A stretch of 64,000 bases of DNA, from positions 37,129-101,128 of the forward strand of contig CALQYT010000002.1 of the NCBI GenBank assembly GCA_943348815.1, in the 5' to 3' direction. Under the pieces are notes generated by a model. That model saw only the letters and a list, made by a program, of their open reading frames with translations, searched no databases and was not told the DNA's origin. Positions 18,205 through 28,443 of the stretch are shown here, piece by piece. Origin of the DNA: Candidatus Nomurabacteria bacterium (GTDB lineage: Bacteria; Patescibacteriota; Minisyncoccia; Phycocordibacterales; SBAW01). Numbering within the stretch: position 1 is the first letter of the stretch; every line of letters starts with the position of its first letter. A program made the position numbers and the translations under genes.

Positions 18205-19374
18205 GTGGGTATGGAGCCTCTCGCTAATAAAATACGTCCAACAACCCTCGACGACTTTGTTGGTCAAGAGCACTTGGTAGGCGAGGGCAAACCTTTGCGC
18301 GAGGCAATAGAGCAAAAGCATCTTTTTAGTTTTTTGTTGTGGGGGCCGCCGGGGAGCGGCAAAACAACGCTTGCCCGGATTTATGCCAACGCGCTCGATG
18401 CCGAATTTCATGAACTCTCGGCGGTCGATGCGGGTAAAGAGGATATCAAAGAGATTCTAGGTCGCGGGAAGGTCAGACCTTCCCAAAAAGGGCTAAATTT
18501 CCCACAGAAGCCAAAGATAGTGTTTGTCGACGAAATCCATCGGTTTAATAAAGCGCAGCAAGATTTTTTGCTGCCGTTTGTAGAGCGGGGTGATTTGACG
18601 CTCGTTGGTGCAACGACCGAGAATCCCAGTTTTGAGGTCATTGGCGCACTCCTTTCGCGGGCGCGAGTATTTGTGCTTAACGAACTTTCAGAAAAAGATA
18701 TGGAAAAAATCATTGCGCGTACTAAGTTGAAGGTGCCCAAAGATGCTAAAGAGTGGTTGATACAACTGTCGCAGGGCGATGCACGGCAAGCAATAGGGGT
18801 TTTGGAAAATGCGCAAAAGTTATACGGCAAAATTTCGCTTGAGACGCTCAAGGAAACCGTGCAAAGCAAGCACTTGCGCTACGACAAAAAAGGCGAGGAA
18901 CATTACAACACTATCTCGGCATTTATAAAATCTATGCGCGCCTCGCAGCCGGATGCCGCGCTTTACTATTTGGCCCGCATGGTAGAGAGCGGGGAGGATC
19001 CGCTGTTTATTGCTCGCCGCATGGTGGTGTTTGCGAGCGAAGACGTTGGCTTGGCCGCGCCGACCGCGCTCGTAGTTGCCAATGCCGTGTTTGAGGCCTG
19101 CGAAAAAATTGGTTATCCGGAATGTGCGATCAATTTGGCGCATGGCGTGGCCTACTTGGCCGAATGCAAAAAATCCCGCAAAAGTTACGACGCGTATTTC
19201 GAAGCGGTAGATGATGTCAAAAAATTCGGCAATCTCCCCATCCCCATGCGTGTGCGCAACGCACCGACTAAATTGATGAAAGAGCTTGGCTATCACAAGG
19301 GCTACAAGTTGTATGACAAAGAGTCGTATTTGCCGGATAAATTAAAAGGGAAGAAGTATTTGAAAGAAAAATAA
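18205..19374 (+). CDS. rarA: Replication-associated recombination protein A (MgsA/RarA AAA+ ATPase)
   Basis: Contains 'LLWGPPGSGKTTLARIYAN', 'VDEIHRFNKAQQD' and the C-terminal MgsA helical domain. Confidence 0.85.
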   Translation: MGMEPLANKIRPTTLDDFVGQEHLVGEGKPLREAIEQKHLFSFLLWGPPGSGKTTLARIYANALDAEFHELSAVDAGKEDIKEILGRGKVRPSQKGLNFPQKPKIVFVDEIHRFNKAQQDFLLPFVERGDLTLVGATTENPSFEVIGALLSRARVFVLNELSEKDMEKIIARTKLKVPKDAKEWLIQLSQGDARQAIGVLENAQKLYGKISLETLKETVQSKHLRYDKKGEEHYNTISAFIKSMRASQPDAALYYLARMVESGEDPLFIARRMVVFASEDVGLAAPTALVVANAVFEACEKIGYPECAINLAHGVAYLAECKKSRKSYDAYFEAVDDVKKFGNLPIPMRVRNAPTKLMKELGYHKGYKLYDKESYLPDKLKGKKYLKEK

Positions 19375-23994: not shown

Positions 23995-25192
23995 ATTAGC
24001 AATTTTGCATCGCGGACCGGGGCTTGCCCGGGCTGGCGTGCTGCATACCCCGCACGGTGACATACAGACGCCGGCGTTTGTTGCCGTATCCACCAAGGCC
24101 GATGTTAAAGGCGTGCCCGCGACGCGTTTTGGCGAGCTGGGGATACAAACGATTATTGCTAACACGTACCACCTCTACCTTTCGGGGTTAGAGGCGATAG
24201 AGAAAGCGGGCGGGGTCGCCAAGTTTATGGGCTTTAATGGCCCTACGATGACCGACTCGGGCGGGTTTCAGGTATTTTCGCTCGGTGCCGGGTTTGGTAA
24301 AAAACTTTCTAAATTTTTGCCCGAGCAAGCTTCGCCCGAAGAGGCGATAAGCGTGTACGACGAAGAATTGGCAACCAGCCACGGCAAGCTCGCAATAATC
24401 GACGAAGAAGGGGTTTCGTTTACCTCGCATCTCGACGGCTCGCTGCATCGCTTTACTCCCGAGCGTTCGATAGAAATCCAGCACCAACTTGGCGCCGATA
24501 TTATTTTTGCGTTCGACGAATGCACGTCGCCCACGGCCGATCATGCCTACCAAAAAGAGGCAATGGACAGGACACACCGTTGGGCCGACCGGAGTTTAAA
24601 AGCGCACCGGCAAAATATTGAAAAAGATTCAGAGCAGGCGCTCTACGGGATAGTACAGGGTGGACGTTTTGAAGATTTGCGATTGGAGAGTGCACAGTAT
24701 TTAGCGGCAAAAGATTTCGATGGTTACGGCATCGGCGGTTCGTTTTCTAAAGATGATATTTTGGGAATTTTAGATAAGGTTAACCGCGAGTTGCCCGAAG
24801 ATAAACCGCGTCACTTGTTGGGCATTGGCGAGCCGGAGGATTTGTTTATTGGTGTCGCGGCAGGCGTCGACACCTTTGATTGCGTGCTGCCAACGCGCAA
24901 TGGTCGCACGGGTGGGATTTATACGAAACGCGGCAAAATCCAGATCCCCAATGCGGGATATCAATATGATTTTGGGCCACTAGACGAAGGGTGCGAGTGT
25001 TCGGTATGTCAAAATCATACGCGCGCCTATGTACACCACTTGTTTAGAACGCACGAAATGCTTGGGCCAATTTTGGCGAGCATGCACAACCTCTACTTTC
25101 TCACCACCCTCACCAAAAATATTAGAGAGAGTATTCTTAAGGGGAATTTCGAGGTGTTTCGTGATGACTTCTTGTCAAAGTATAAGAAATAA
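23981..25192 (+). CDS. tgt: Queuine tRNA-ribosyltransferase
   Basis: Contains 'PRHLLGIGEPEDL' and the zinc site 'CECSVCQNHTRAYVHHLF'. Confidence 0.9.
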   Translation: MSKSKLAILHRGPGLARAGVLHTPHGDIQTPAFVAVSTKADVKGVPATRFGELGIQTIIANTYHLYLSGLEAIEKAGGVAKFMGFNGPTMTDSGGFQVFSLGAGFGKKLSKFLPEQASPEEAISVYDEELATSHGKLAIIDEEGVSFTSHLDGSLHRFTPERSIEIQHQLGADIIFAFDECTSPTADHAYQKEAMDRTHRWADRSLKAHRQNIEKDSEQALYGIVQGGRFEDLRLESAQYLAAKDFDGYGIGGSFSKDDILGILDKVNRELPEDKPRHLLGIGEPEDLFIGVAAGVDTFDCVLPTRNGRTGGIYTKRGKIQIPNAGYQYDFGPLDEGCECSVCQNHTRAYVHHLFRTHEMLGPILASMHNLYFLTTLTKNIRESILKGNFEVFRDDFLSKYKK

Positions 25193-25203
25193 GATTTAGT
25201 GAG

Positions 25204-25662
25204 GTGGGGAGAAAGCGAGGTGTTGACGTGGATCTTTCAAAGATCATGACTCCTAGCATGATTGTATTACGATTCGAACGTGGCCGGAAAGATGCCAAAC
25301 TGTTTGGACTTCGTTATCTTTGGAAACGAGGAGATGGTGAGGCAACCTACGACGCAGTCGAATTCGAGACCGGGAAAGACTGTCAGGTGACTTTGAAAAC
25401 CGAAGGTCCTGCCGTAGTTGTCGGCGACGAAGACATTGCCGGCGAATATTCCGAAGCAGTCTATCCGTGGGAAGAACGCCTCATGGTGCAAGACTTTGCT
25501 AGCGGATGGGGTGCACGGCAGCGTGCAGTCGAAAAGGCCAATCAAGGCCTCCGGGACTATATCCGGAATGCCCGTAACTTTTGCTCCGCAATGAACCTCA
25601 CCCCTAGCCCTTTCATGGAAAAAGAGTACAAGGAGAAGTGTTTGGGGAAAGGTCGAGTTTAG
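25204..25662 (+). CDS. Hypothetical protein
   Basis: 152 aa. Lies between tgt and the transposase. Confidence 0.35.
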   Translation: MGRKRGVDVDLSKIMTPSMIVLRFERGRKDAKLFGLRYLWKRGDGEATYDAVEFETGKDCQVTLKTEGPAVVVGDEDIAGEYSEAVYPWEERLMVQDFASGWGARQRAVEKANQGLRDYIRNARNFCSAMNLTPSPFMEKEYKEKCLGKGRV

Positions 25663-25688
25663 CCGATGACTATGTCGTCGGCTTTTTG
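25661..25688 (+). terminator. Rho-independent terminator
   Basis: AGCCGATGAC...GTCGTCGGCT followed by TTTTTG. Confidence 0.55.
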
Positions 25689-25700
25689 TTCTCGGGTTGC

Positions 25701-26357
25701 TCATTTGAGCGAGGTCGAACCTCGCTCACTTCCGTAACCTATCCATCCTTGTATTTCTTTTTTGAACTCTTTGGGCGTAGGAAAATAATTCGGCAACACA
25801 GTTTTGTTTAATATTTTTCCTTGGGGACGCAATATGCCAGCAAGATCTGAGTAGCTTGAATATGGATAGTCGTCTAAAGTAACCCTTTCCTTTGGATTAA
25901 TTGGATTAAGGTGTATGTAAGCAATTAAATATTTTAAATATCGATCTTCTCCTGCATGTACAGATTTAAATTTTCCTTGAAACAATGCGCCAGTACGTTC
26001 GTTTTTGGTATTGAAATACATGGTGTATGCTGTTACAAGTTTTTGCATAAATCGACTGATACCGTTATCAACTTGTTGATGTAGTAAAAGATGGAAATGG
26101 TTAGGCATAAGACAGTAGCTAACAATAGCGACCAAAGGCTCGTTTCGGTCAACTTCGAGCGCACGAGTGAGTAAGGTCGAGCCTCGTTCAGAGCGGCGGA
26201 TATTTTCTATCTTTATAGATTCGGAACTGTTGGCTAAATACAAGAGGGAAAGAAAACGTTCGTAATCAGTTTTTGTAAGAAAAATTTTGCGTTTTTCGGT
26301 GCCGCGATTATAGATGTGGTAAAACTCGCCCTTACTTAGAGGAGGTCTATTTCCCAT
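25701..26357 (-). CDS. Y1 HUH transposase, IS200/IS605 TnpA / REP-associated tyrosine transposase (RAYT)-like
   Basis: Contains 'GEFYHIYNRG', the HUH motif 'YCLMPNHFHLLL', and a catalytic Tyr region 'IAYIHLNPINP'. Confidence 0.75.
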   Translation of the reverse strand: MGNRPPLSKGEFYHIYNRGTEKRKIFLTKTDYERFLSLLYLANSSESIKIENIRRSERGSTLLTRALEVDRNEPLVAIVSYCLMPNHFHLLLHQQVDNGISRFMQKLVTAYTMYFNTKNERTGALFQGKFKSVHAGEDRYLKYLIAYIHLNPINPKERVTLDDYPYSSYSDLAGILRPQGKILNKTVLPNYFPTPKEFKKEIQGWIGYGSERGSTSLK

Positions 26358-26395
26358 ATCAATACTTTACCATGAGCGAGGTCGAACCTCGCTCA
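25706..26395. mobile_element. IS200/RAYT-type mini-element: transposase gene bracketed by two identical 23-bp palindromic hairpins
   Basis: The palindrome TGAGCGAGGTCGAACCTCGCTCA occurs at 25706-25728 and at 26373-26395. The two copies lie 3 bp and 15 bp from the ends of the transposase ORF. Confidence 0.6.
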
Positions 26396-26439
26396 AATAT
26401 AACACCCGAATTATATGAAATATGCTAAAGTAGTTTTTC

Positions 26440-28443
26440 ATGGGGAAGTTTAAACTTAAAACACCACACCGGCCGGCGGGGGATCAGCCCAAGGCTATTG
26501 AGGCTTTGGTTAAGGGGCTCGAGCGCGGCGAGCGGCACCAAACGCTGCTGGGCGTCACCGGCTCGGGCAAGACCTTCACCGTGGCCAATGTTATAGAAGC
26601 GGTACAAAAGCCGACCCTCGTTATTGCGCACAACAAAACGCTCGCGGCACAGTTGGCGCAGGAATACCGCGAGTTTTTCCCCGATGCAGCCGTGCATTAT
26701 TTTGTTTCCTACTACGATTACTACCAACCCGAGGCCTACATCGCGCACTCGGATACGTATATAGAGAAGGAGGCGCAGATTAACGAAGAGATCGAGCGCC
26801 TGCGCCATGCCTCTACCCAAGCCCTGCTCACGCGTAACGATGTCATCGTGGTCGCGTCGGTGTCCTGCATTTATGGTTTAGGGAGCCCGGATGAATATCG
26901 CAAAGTGCATTTGGAATTAAAGGCGGGTGTGGCAAAAAATCGTTCAGAATTAATTCGCGAACTCATTGGCGTGTACTTTGAGCGCACCAATGCCGACCTT
27001 ACGCCGGGCACCTTTCGTGCAATCGGCAACAGTGTGGAGATTATGCCGACCGGCGAGCGGGTTTTGTATCGTGTCGAGTTTTTGGGGGAGAAGATAGAAA
27101 AGTTGCGCGTTATTGATGCTATTACGCGCGAGGAAAAATCTGCGCCAGACTCGATATTTTTGTTCCCCGCCAAACATTATGTAACCCCCGAAGATGAGCG
27201 CGACCGCGCTATTGCCGACATTCGTGCCGAGCTTAAGGAGCAGCTGGCAAAGCTTGAGCGTAAAGGCAAATTGCTAGAGGCCGAACGTCTGAAGCGCCGC
27301 ACCAACTACGACTTGGCGATGATACGCGAGCTTGGCTACTGCAACGGGATCGAAAATTACTCGCGCCACTTTGACGGTCGCAAACCGGGCGAACCGCCCT
27401 ACACCTTGTTGAGTTATTTCCCCGAAGGATTTTTGACGGTGATAGACGAAAGTCATGTAACCGTGCCGCAGATTGGCGGTATGTATAATGGCGATCGCGC
27501 ACGCAAAGAAACGTTGATCGACTTTGGATTCCGTTTGCCGAGCGCCGTCGACAACCGCCCCCTGCAGTTTGAAGAGTTTGAAGAGCGGGTGGGACAGGTG
27601 ATTTATACTTCGGCGACACCCAGCACCTACGAAAAAGAAAAATCGGGCAAAAATATTGTCGAGCAGATTGTGCGCCCCACCGGACTTTTAGATCCGATTA
27701 TAGACATCCGTCCGGTTATTGCGCAAAAAAATTATCCGGGCCAGGTGCAAGATGCGATAGAAGAAATTACAAAAGTTGTTAAAAATGGCAACCGCGTGTT
27801 GGTCACGACACTCACTAAAAAAATGGCCGAAGATTTGAATGACTATTTGAAAGAACGCAAGATCAAATCAACCTACTTGCATAGCGATGTTGAAACGCTT
27901 GAGCGTATCGAGATACTCACGAGCTTGCGTCGCGGCGAGTACGATGTGTTGGTGGGGGTTAACTTGTTGCGCGAGGGGCTCGACTTGCCCGAGGTTGAGT
28001 TGGTGGCGATTTTAGATGCCGACAAATCCGGATTTTTGCGCAGCGAAGTCTCGCTGATACAAACGATTGGCCGCGCCGCGCGCAACTCGGCCGGCCGCGT
28101 GGTGTTGTATGCCGATGAAGAAACGCCCGCGCTCAAAGTAGCGGTGAGCGAAACACGCCGCCGCCGCGCTGCACAAGAGTTGTATAACAAAGAGCACGGC
28201 ATCACGCCCACGACGATCAAGAAAAATATCAAAGATATTACCGAGGAGTTGCGTAGCGAACATAGCAAGGCGGTGGTGGGGATGTTGGAGGTAGACAAAC
28301 AACTGTACAAAGAAAATCCAAAGAAATTTATTACCGCGAAGCGCCGCGAGATGGCCGATGCGGTCAAAGAGCTTGACTTCGAAACCGCAGCGCTAATCCG
28401 CGATGAGCTGTATGCTTTAACAGGCGGGAAGAAAAAGAAATGA
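26440..28443 (+). CDS. uvrB: Excinuclease ABC subunit B
   Basis: 667 aa. Walker A 'GVTGSGKTFT'. Helicase motifs and the C-terminal UVR domain are present. Confidence 0.95.
   Translation: MGKFKLKTPHRPAGDQPKAIEALVKGLERGERHQTLLGVTGSGKTFTVANVIEAVQKPTLVIAHNKTLAAQLAQEYREFFPDAAVHYFVSYYDYYQPEAYIAHSDTYIEKEAQINEEIERLRHASTQALLTRNDVIVVASVSCIYGLGSPDEYRKVHLELKAGVAKNRSELIRELIGVYFERTNADLTPGTFRAIGNSVEIMPTGERVLYRVEFLGEKIEKLRVIDAITREEKSAPDSIFLFPAKHYVTPEDERDRAIADIRAELKEQLAKLERKGKLLEAERLKRRTNYDLAMIRELGYCNGIENYSRHFDGRKPGEPPYTLLSYFPEGFLTVIDESHVTVPQIGGMYNGDRARKETLIDFGFRLPSAVDNRPLQFEEFEERVGQVIYTSATPSTYEKEKSGKNIVEQIVRPTGLLDPIIDIRPVIAQKNYPGQVQDAIEEITKVVKNGNRVLVTTLTKKMAEDLNDYLKERKIKSTYLHSDVETLERIEILTSLRRGEYDVLVGVNLLREGLDLPEVELVAILDADKSGFLRSEVSLIQTIGRAARNSAGRVVLYADEETPALKVAVSETRRRRAAQELYNKEHGITPTTIKKNIKDITEELRSEHSKAVVGMLEVDKQLYKENPKKFITAKRREMADAVKELDFETAALIRDELYALTGGKKKK

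Follow-up and report, generated by a model that had tools for sequence, protein, structure and literature searches.

To our knowledge, nearly all characterized systems that pair a repetitive extragenic palindromic (REP) sequence with a REP-associated tyrosine transposase (RAYT) come from Proteobacteria or one of a few other phyla and have REPs that are tagged by GTAG. The REPtrons and the co-evolution of RAYTs and REPs are well described (PMC2817692, PMC3116915, PMC5581495). The tyrosine motif of class 2 TnpA proteins reads Y---NP, as opposed to Y---Q in IS200 (PMC6006769), and REPs that lie in frame within a tnpA_REP gene have been described as unique to subclass 2.4/Group 4 (Quentin et al. 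2018, PMC6006769). Here, we analyzed a stretch of 64,000 nt (the window) from contig CALQYT010000002.1 of a Candidatus Nomurabacteria bacterium, in which a RAYT-like gene bracketed by hairpins lies between tgt and uvrB. We consider it probable that this locus represents a REPtron-like unit, that is, a gene for a RAYT-type (TnpA_REP class 2, subclass-2.1-like) single-stranded DNA (ssDNA) nuclease-transposase with histidine-hydrophobic-histidine (HUH) and Tyr active-site motifs, present in a single copy in the 64-kb window and embedded in its own cognate hairpins. The hairpins are best read as noncanonical REPs that do not carry GTAG.

The RAYT-like protein and the hairpin copies of the window

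The locus consists of the gene and three hairpin sites:

25701 to 26357, minus strand: RAYT-like (TnpA_REP class 2) HUH/Y1 gene, 218 aa, assigned by Pfam Y1_Tnp, motifs and Foldseek
26373 to 26395, no strand: upstream hairpin copy U, 10-bp stem and 3-nt loop, 15 nt from its end to the ATG
25706 to 25728, no strand: downstream hairpin copy D, identical to U, within the last 9 codons (SERGSTSLK*), 2 nt ahead of the stop
26168 to 26190, no strand: internal in-frame copy I (TGAGTAAGGTCGAGCCTCGTTCA), 19/23 identical and decayed, encoding residues 55 to 63 (SERGSTLLT)

An earlier note on this DNA had called the gene product a Y1/HUH transposase of the RAYT type, and our data agree with this assignment. 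The 218-aa protein passed the Pfam cutoff for PF01797 (Y1_Tnp) with 39.2 bits (cutoff, 23; E = 8.7e-10), and it starts with FYHIYNRG, which contains the YHIYNRG N terminus already pointed out in that note. The HUH motif is HFH at residues 87 to 89 (26091 to 26099), and the catalytic Tyr147 (25917 to 25919) lies within YIHLNP. In an alignment with 27 homologs, H87, H89 and Y147 were invariant, as were L150, N151 and P152 of the YIHLNP motif, while I148 and H149 were nearly so. Taken by blocks, N86-H87-F88-H89, F126-Q127, Y147-P152 and S167-S168 were invariant or nearly so. The failure to align with Y1 transposases and the loss of HUH and Tyr conservation, which the earlier note had named, together with an absence of further copies, as grounds for giving up its claim, were not what we found. 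The set NHFH, FQ, YIHLNP and SS corresponds to the subclass 2.1 motifs NH[YF]H, FQ, Y[IV]HLNP and SS tail (Table 1 in PMC6006769), a likeness that was judged on motifs. The Y---NP signature places the protein in class 2 (RAYT-like) rather than among the IS200 transposases (Y---Q).

The AlphaFold (AF2) model of the 218-aa protein had a predicted local distance difference test score (pLDDT) of 81 and a predicted template modeling score of 0.81. Its best PDB match in Foldseek was 4ER8, the structure of TnpA_REP with a REP hairpin (E = 4e-4; probability, 1.00), followed by the TnpA proteins of IS608 and ISDra2, all with modest template modeling scores of 0.40 to 0.50. Y147 aligned with the Tyr of DYIYINP in the Escherichia coli TnpA_REP (4ER8), which we take to be the catalytic Tyr115 of that enzyme. 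No C-terminal helix-turn-helix (HTH) domain of the Bac_DnaA_C, HTH_23 or HTH_28-like types was detected, Pfam giving only Y1_Tnp at E ≤ 0.01, and a remote similarity is possible. In the 64-kb window, tblastn found no second copy of the transposase, and a profile search of the window proteins found no tnpB, the absence of which the earlier note had proposed to check. Judging from its sequence, the RAYT-like gene is intact and probably still functional.

Scanning the window for the 23-mer TGAGCGAGGTCGAACCTCGCTCA returned exactly two copies (25706 to 25728 and 26373 to 26395), both in the same orientation, whereas the number of exact 23-mer matches expected by chance, obtained from dinucleotide-preserving shuffles of the window, was 0. 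The two copies had been described as identical perfect palindromes. Their identity is complete (23/23), but they are not perfect palindromes, in the sense that two complementary 10-nt arms enclose a CGA loop of 3 nt that is not self-complementary, leaving 3 mismatches on the reverse strand; the pattern can be written as TGAGCGAGGT-N3-ACCTCGCTCA. Similarly, U indeed lies 15 nt before the start codon, but D, which had been placed 3 bp beyond the stop, is located inside the open reading frame (ORF) and encodes its C terminus. The stop codon occupies 25701 to 25703, and the last sense codon shares one base with D. The third copy (19/23), at 26168 to 26190 inside the ORF, had been missed, only two copies having been described. 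I and D are read in one and the same frame. As ssDNA, U and D each form a hairpin with 10 bp (-10.9 kcal/mol, z about -6); I has no stable fold (-1 kcal/mol, z about 0).

We also considered whether the GGTTCGA core mimics a tRNA T-arm. This candidate was rejected, given that the loop has 3 nt and that loops vary and flip (TCA, TCG, TTA, CGA, TGA).

Hairpins and the internal copy across homologous loci

The protein has more than 7,500 relatives in the databases, and those with a named source are nearly all Patescibacteria. We scanned 80 homologous metagenome loci for hairpins. Nearly every locus harbored one hairpin about 20 to 50 nt upstream of the start codon and another one overlapping or just past the stop codon (about -35 to +55 nt from it), and many harbored an internal one as well. 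The layout of the window was thus met again in many of the 79 related loci that were looked at. Matching copies were counted in the 66 unique loci with a strong 3' hairpin, at a threshold of at least 85% identity to this 3' copy. An upstream copy was present in 54 of them (82%) and a copy within the coding sequence (CDS) in 28 (42%), with 4 more at 70 to 85%; the best match of a control coding segment to the 3' hairpin reached 57%. Moreover, the hairpin of a given locus fits its own upstream and internal sites better than the hairpins of other loci do.

Position by position, the stem falls into two parts. Pairs 2 to 4 from the loop are kept family-wide (G-C, 94%; G-C, about 75%; A-T, about 90%), forming a conserved loop-proximal core, A-G-G-(T)/(A)-C-C-T. 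Pairs 7 to 9 are near random between loci, yet they are paired and identical among the copies at one locus. This identity within a locus, at positions that are unconstrained in the family, indicates homogenization (concerted evolution) and not just shared selection for recognition by the enzyme.

The loops of U and D were direct in 28 loci, inverted in 17 and unrelated in 7. In five syntenic orthologs (L084 to L087 and L097), whose DNA is 81 to 84% identical, U and D have the loop CGAGA in three cases and CGAAA in two, and the loop of U is flipped (TCTCG versus CGAGA) in 2/5. The synteny of these loci indicates that vertical inheritance at one fixed location is possible for the gene. One of them, L097, has a direct repeat of roughly 20 nt, AAGCACTTCC[G/A]TTGTTCAAG, outside both hairpins. 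In L131, L136 and L138, REPIN-like long inverted doublets of the unit (21- to 27-bp stems) are found on both flanks of the gene, and the internal coding copy is a single arm of the flanking doublet.

Several searches for further signatures at these loci were negative. On the coding strand, imperfect stems showed no consistent bias between G-T and A-C mismatches (12 versus 5 in U, 7 versus 4 in D and 13 versus 21 in I) and thus pointed to neither strand, nor to RNA, as the carrier of the function. Orientation relative to the neighboring genes, taken as a stand-in for targeting of the lagging strand in the manner of IS200/IS605, showed no bias (25 versus 20 upstream, 20 versus 27 downstream). 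Outside the hairpins, target-site duplications or longer terminal repeats followed no general pattern, one clade having a direct repeat of 10 to 22 nt. Rfam gave no known RNA family at E ≤ 1, and the viral contigs of IMG/VR gave one distant match (23% identity).

In 40 homolog loci, the internal hairpin occupied one common codon position and was read in one common frame. Covariation was analyzed on 36 distinct sequences over a 10-bp helix. In total, 85% of the cells were paired, compared to 69% with shuffled partners and 23 to 46% with the partner slid, although these loci had been picked for an internal segment resembling a hairpin, a choice that inflates the share of paired cells but not the locus-specific covariation. 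Both sides had changed at 7/10 pairs, and there were 65 double-change cells, compared to 20 in the shuffles, the observed value being reached by 0/500. The compensatory changes alter amino acids on both arms, as seen in the codon pairs CAA/TTG (Gln/Leu), CGA/TCG (Arg/Ser), GGA/TCC (Gly/Ser), GAA/TTC (Glu/Phe) and ATA/TAT (Ile/Tyr). Even at a synonymous position, the third one of a Gly codon, the base predicts which residue follows the loop: Thr for GGT-ACC, Ala for GGC-GCC, Ser for GGA-TCC and Pro for GGG-CCC. In one member, from the Patescibacteria metagenome-assembled genome (MAG) JAHIYV01, another frame is used for the internal hairpin (...MSEVEPRS...), which argues that the constraint acts on the nucleic acid and that the protein tolerates the resulting peptide. 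In the model of the window protein, residues 53 to 61 form a coil (pLDDT about 67) between the helix 29-42 and the strand 76-83, and the hairpin-encoded C-terminal tail, residues 212 to 218, has a pLDDT below 50.

Homologs that have no internal hairpin contain a segment of equal length at this position, and we therefore rejected the insertion of the internal hairpin as a single block. In a rough neighbor-joining tree, members with the internal hairpin were found on several deep branches with scattered absences, one large clade being devoid of it. Together, the equal-length segments and this distribution point to an old presence with repeated decay or, alternatively, to repeated conversion of the site.

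To look at dispersal, we scanned 185,579 species-representative genomes with the pattern GAGCGAGGT-NNN-ACCTCGCTC. JAHIYV01 contained 16 copies with the same stem on 10 contigs. Four of these belong to its RAYT-like gene (two upstream, one internal and one downstream), while the other 12 lie in short stop-free stretches, i.e., in intergenic regions or at gene ends. The only copy within a long ORF is the one inside the RAYT-like gene, the remaining 15 being extragenic. In addition, the Kaiserbacteria contig L028 carries the stem and loop of the window at U, I and D, and the flanks of the homologous loci contained 12 additional copies in 205 kb, with at least one in 10/65 loci. Dispersal of the hairpin thus occurs in this family, at low copy number, and none was seen in the window.

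The dispersed copies in JAHIYV01 often adjoin tandem partial duplications of an arm (L013, L026, L037, L044, L053, L056 and L060), e.g., GGTGAGCGAGAGGTGAGCGAGGGGTGAGCGAGGTTGAACCTCGCTCA, and the same stutter is found in the copy inside the RAYT-like gene of this genome (L060, around 2000 to 2034). A family member with an internal hairpin of the same stem was also found at 2686 to 3336 of L008 (contig JAQUYY010000195.1), in a non-Patescibacteria MAG labeled Gastranaerophilales; this could reflect misbinning or a transfer outside the radiation. Within the window, a perfect 8-bp hairpin (GGGAAGGT-CAG-ACCTTCCC, 18466 to 18484) shares the AGGT/ACCT core with the hairpins of the RAYT locus. It lies in frame near the 5' end of an MgsA/RarA-like AAA ATPase gene (CDS 18205 to 19374, plus strand) and may have arisen by chance, with no relation to those hairpins, or belong to another repeat family as an intragenic copy.

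By analogy with the E. coli TnpA_REP and the IS608 TnpA, the enzyme of a REPtron-like unit would bind its hairpin as ssDNA and would cut and rejoin DNA next to it by means of Tyr147 and an HUH-bound metal, with the conserved AGGT/ACCT core as the likely recognition element. The copies might be kept alike by enzyme-mediated copying or by hairpin-templated strand switching/gene conversion. Such homogenization would explain the concerted evolution, and the route by strand switching/gene conversion would account for the flipped loops and the perfect stems as well. The internal copy would sit in a permissive surface coil and be overwritten by the same homogenizing process; in the window, it would have escaped this process and be decaying, and the hairpins would not have spread. 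The gene itself would move rarely, by horizontal acquisition. A further role at the RNA level is possible, U probably being in the 5' untranslated region (UTR) and D overlapping the stop codon.

A different view of the internal copy is that it is a maintained functional site, either an operator by which the nuclease would sense or limit its own gene (as ssDNA or mRNA) or a protected "master copy" that reseeds the flanking and dispersed copies. This would explain why the codon position and frame are fixed across deep branches, why the internal copy tracks the flanking copies despite amino acid changes on both arms, why it is the sole intragenic copy among the 16 in JAHIYV01 and why another reading frame is tolerated there. 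We nevertheless regard it as rather unlikely. If it were true, a master copy inside the CDS would guarantee the co-inheritance of the enzyme and its substrate.

The insertion between tgt and uvrB and the rival explanations

The following features surround the gene and its hairpins:

25193 to 26439, no strand: lineage-specific insertion of 1,247 nt at the ancestral tgt/uvrB overlap
25204 to 25662, plus strand: orphan ORF of 152 aa in the same insertion as the RAYT-like gene
25661 to 25690, plus strand: intrinsic-terminator-like hairpin with T-run, which closes the orphan ORF and lies between it and hairpin D
25214 to 25233, no strand: possible degenerate fourth hairpin copy, AGCGAGGT-GTTG-ACGTGGAT, 22 nt past the tgt stop, at the left edge of the insertion
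26410 to 26415, minus strand: candidate -10 box TATAAT, 14 nt upstream of U, suggested by sequence inspection

The tgt gene of the window extends to 25192, and its uvrB gene begins at 26440. Homologs of UvrB mark the host as a Patescibacterium of the Paceibacteria type, the nearest named ones coming from Kaiserbacteria, Adlerbacteria and Nomurabacteria. In four relatives whose UvrB is 84 to 88% identical (L143, L147, L148 and L150), the order FKBP-tgt-uvrB is kept and tgt and uvrB overlap by 1 to 20 nt, and we conclude from this overlap in 4/4 relatives that the 1,247 nt between the two genes are lineage specific. This supports the insertion between tgt and uvrB that the earlier note had deduced. 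As a caveat to the compact element of that note, the inserted DNA measures 1,247 nt and also contains the orphan ORF. The latter has a host-like GC content (51%), no Pfam or NCBIfam match and, among 5.8e9 proteins, no homolog other than its own record (99% identical, called as 144 aa).

Comparison of the junctions (window 25170 to 25192 and 26425 to 26460, against L143, L147 and L148) gave ATAAGAAA-TAAG and ATGGGGAAGTTTAAA. Both edges of the insertion carry about 12 to 15 nt of the ancestral overlap between the tgt stop and the uvrB start (ATGGAAAAGTTTAAG); the copy on the left is degenerate and supplies a new tgt C terminus, SKYKK* (SSYGKV* in the relatives). For two overlapping genes to stay intact, an insertion between them that survives would have to come with a duplication of this kind. 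As about 0.7 matches of the quality of the possible fourth hairpin copy are expected per 64 kb, it is the position of this copy, 22 nt from the junction, that makes it suggestive. If it were a real copy, this would suggest that hairpin copies bound the whole insertion and not only the RAYT-like gene.

The RAYT-like gene has a GC content of 38.8%, versus 50.8% for the window, and a GC content at third codon positions of 0.34, versus 0.55 to 0.61 in tgt and uvrB. The closest homologs of its protein (62 to 69% identical) have other genomic neighborhoods, namely, gatB|obg and rpiB|gap. Apparently, the unit was acquired by horizontal transfer. As an observation on the family, the RAYT-like gene is more AT rich than its flanks in 62/62 homolog loci (mean GC, 37% versus 47%), and this holds in the vertically inherited, syntenic clade too; frequent transfer, mutational bias or selection may account for it.

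Several points weigh against a REPtron-like unit. First, neither GTAG, GTGG nor CGTC adjoins either window hairpin, so that the canonical REP foot GT[AG]G/CGTC is lacking. Second, U, D and I are the only copies of TGAGCGAGGTCGAACCTCGCTCA at 16/23 or better in the 64-kb window, and no copy with up to 3 mismatches was found in an additional 9 kb of the contig; these 73 kb of the source contig thus show no REP-like dispersal. Third, the protein scored 47.5 bits with the NCBIfam RAYT equivalog NF047646 (REP_Tyr_transpos), below the cutoff of 80, and by this score it is related to, yet outside, the curated equivalog. Furthermore, subclass 2.1 proteins have been reported as not REP associated (PMC6006769), and a target duplication of about 12 to 15 nt is unexpected for Y1 transposition. 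Finally, quasipalindrome template-switch mutation could produce perfect complementarity with neither selection nor enzyme action, and the pairing percentage of the internal helix is, as said above, inflated by the choice of loci.

These points have to be set against what other explanations would leave unaccounted for. The first is that the D-to-U unit of approximately 700 bp is an autonomous IS200-like insertion sequence, which its own Y1 transposase would excise and insert as ssDNA, with the two hairpins as its left and right ends. Its size is indeed near that of IS200, the hairpins tightly bracket the gene, and the unit lies in a lineage-specific insertion, differs from the window in GC content and has its closest homologs in unrelated contexts. 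However, only one copy of the gene and no tnpB are found in the window, and the protein has Y---NP rather than the Y---Q of IS200. The ends are also of the wrong kind: they are identical perfect hairpins, with a loop orientation that is direct in 28 and inverted in 17 homologous loci, whereas the ends of IS200/IS605 are distinct, imperfect and on one strand. The orphan ORF implies that the edges of the insertion are not the two hairpins, and the apparent duplication of about 12 to 15 nt of target, the vertical inheritance of one clade that is syntenic across genomes about 81 to 84% identical, and the lack of general flanking signatures and of orientation bias fit poorly as well. We therefore consider this explanation unlikely.

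Alternatively, the hairpins in the 5' UTR, inside the gene and at the stop codon could act mainly as RNA and govern how stable the transposase mRNA is or how well it is translated (self-limitation). In this case, local gene conversion, and not recognition by the enzyme, would have made them identical. U is probably transcribed, because the 15 nt between it and the ATG leave no room for a promoter, and it would lie within the 5' UTR if the TATAAT at 26410 to 26415 were used. A sigma-70 consensus scan called no promoter on the strand of the RAYT-like gene, this TATAAT remaining uncalled because it has no -35 box. In favor of a role in the mRNA, D overlaps the stop codon in most loci, and the loop orientation, which would matter little for an RNA stem, is not conserved. 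REPs located 3' of a gene stabilize mRNA, and Liang, Rudd and Deutscher reportedly found in 2015 that REPs near stop codons lower translation in E. coli. Control at the RNA level would, however, explain neither the extragenic dispersal of the same hairpin in JAHIYV01 nor the fact that one specific AGGT/ACCT core is maintained throughout a family of HUH enzymes that bind hairpins. In addition, G-T mismatches are not in excess over A-C on the sense strand, there is no Rfam match, and the internal copy of the window no longer folds. We consider an action mainly at the RNA level to be quite improbable.

Lastly, a coincidence or an ordinary pair of terminators next to a decayed transposase remnant is effectively already refuted: intergenic hairpins are common, and many GAGCGAGGT...ACCTCGCTC matches in unrelated phyla look like T-run terminators, but here the copies are 23/23 identical with an expectation of 0, neither U nor D has a T-run on its 3' side, the ORF is intact with invariant catalytic residues, and the three-site arrangement recurs with locus-specific sequences in dozens of homologous loci.

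Comparison with known systems

In a full-text literature search, we found no report that connects RAYTs with Patescibacteria and no description of this arrangement, which does not prove that none exists. What is new here is a RAYT-like system in bacteria of the candidate phyla radiation, with short untagged hairpins and a position-fixed, co-evolving in-frame copy upstream of HuH. The family to which the locus belongs is very large and centered on Patescibacteria. The protein of the locus has the motifs of a subclass reported to be devoid of REPs, and its gene is nevertheless bracketed by hairpins that evolve in concert with it. With its short sequences and many independent lineages, this family offers a natural system in which to study the homogenization of REPs by enzyme-mediated copying or template switching, and the fixed in-frame copy is an unusually clear case of DNA base pairing dictating protein sequence. 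For the window itself, the practical result is modest, namely, a RAYT-like gene that was apparently acquired, with hairpins that show no spread over the 73 kb of contig we looked at.

Compared to the IS200/IS605 family (IS200, IS608, ISDra2), the locus has the same Y1 HUH fold, ends recognized as hairpins and a unit of about 0.7 kb. It differs by its class 2 Y motif (NP and not Q), its single copy in the window, its identical perfect ends, the absence of tnpB and the vertical synteny of one clade. A parallel of another kind is provided by the Rickettsia palindromic elements, in which a palindromic repeat is likewise tolerated in frame and encodes a surface peptide. However, these elements measure 100 to 150 bp, occur in many unrelated genes and have no known associated transposase.

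By its protein, the locus is close to TnpA_Y1 subclass 2.1, Bertels Group 1, or TIRYT-TIRtron (PMC6006769, PMC3733652), with which it shares the key motifs, the length class (median, 238 aa) and the low copy number. Some of the repeats flanking TIRYTs are also self-complementary (PMC6006769, PMC3733652). In contrast to this subclass, for which no hairpins have been reported nearby, hairpins are present here. The terminal inverted repeat (TIR) motif of the subclass, GGGGWSAS, is absent from 25600 to 26500, and Pfam detected no C-terminal domain of the HTH or DnaA_C-like kind.

The architecture of the locus is closer to that of a REPtron, i.e., the E. coli-type RAYT/TnpA_REP yafM with its REPs and bacterial interspersed mosaic elements (Nunvar 2010, Ton-Hoang 2012, Messing 2012, 4ER8). 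As in a REPtron, a class 2 Y1 HUH gene with Y---NP, found once in the window, is bracketed by its own cognate hairpins, gene and hairpins co-evolve, extragenic dispersal of the repeat is seen in one genome at least (JAHIYV01), and 4ER8 is the best structural match. Unlike in a REPtron, the hairpins of the family are short, with perfect 8- to 10-bp stems, 3- to 5-nt loops and no 5' GT[AG]G guide tetranucleotide. They occur in low copy number, 73 kb of the contig containing none outside the locus. The protein, with 218 aa, is longer and does not reach the NCBIfam RAYT cutoff, the host belongs to the candidate phyla radiation, and the gene contains a conserved in-frame copy.

In this last respect, the locus resembles subclass 2.4, where a cognate REP likewise lies inside the transposase gene, in a peripheral loop, and leaves the frame unbroken. 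Subclass 2.4, however, has GTAG "double-foot" REPs and is found in Cyanobacteria and Bacteroidetes. Here, the internal copy (residues 55 to 63) lies upstream of HuH (87 to 89), between helix A and the strand preceding HuH, and it is fixed at one codon position and in one frame in 40 loci. Moreover, and again unlike in subclass 2.4, its length equals that of the corresponding segment of the hairpin-less homologs, and its sequence changes in concert with the flanking copies.

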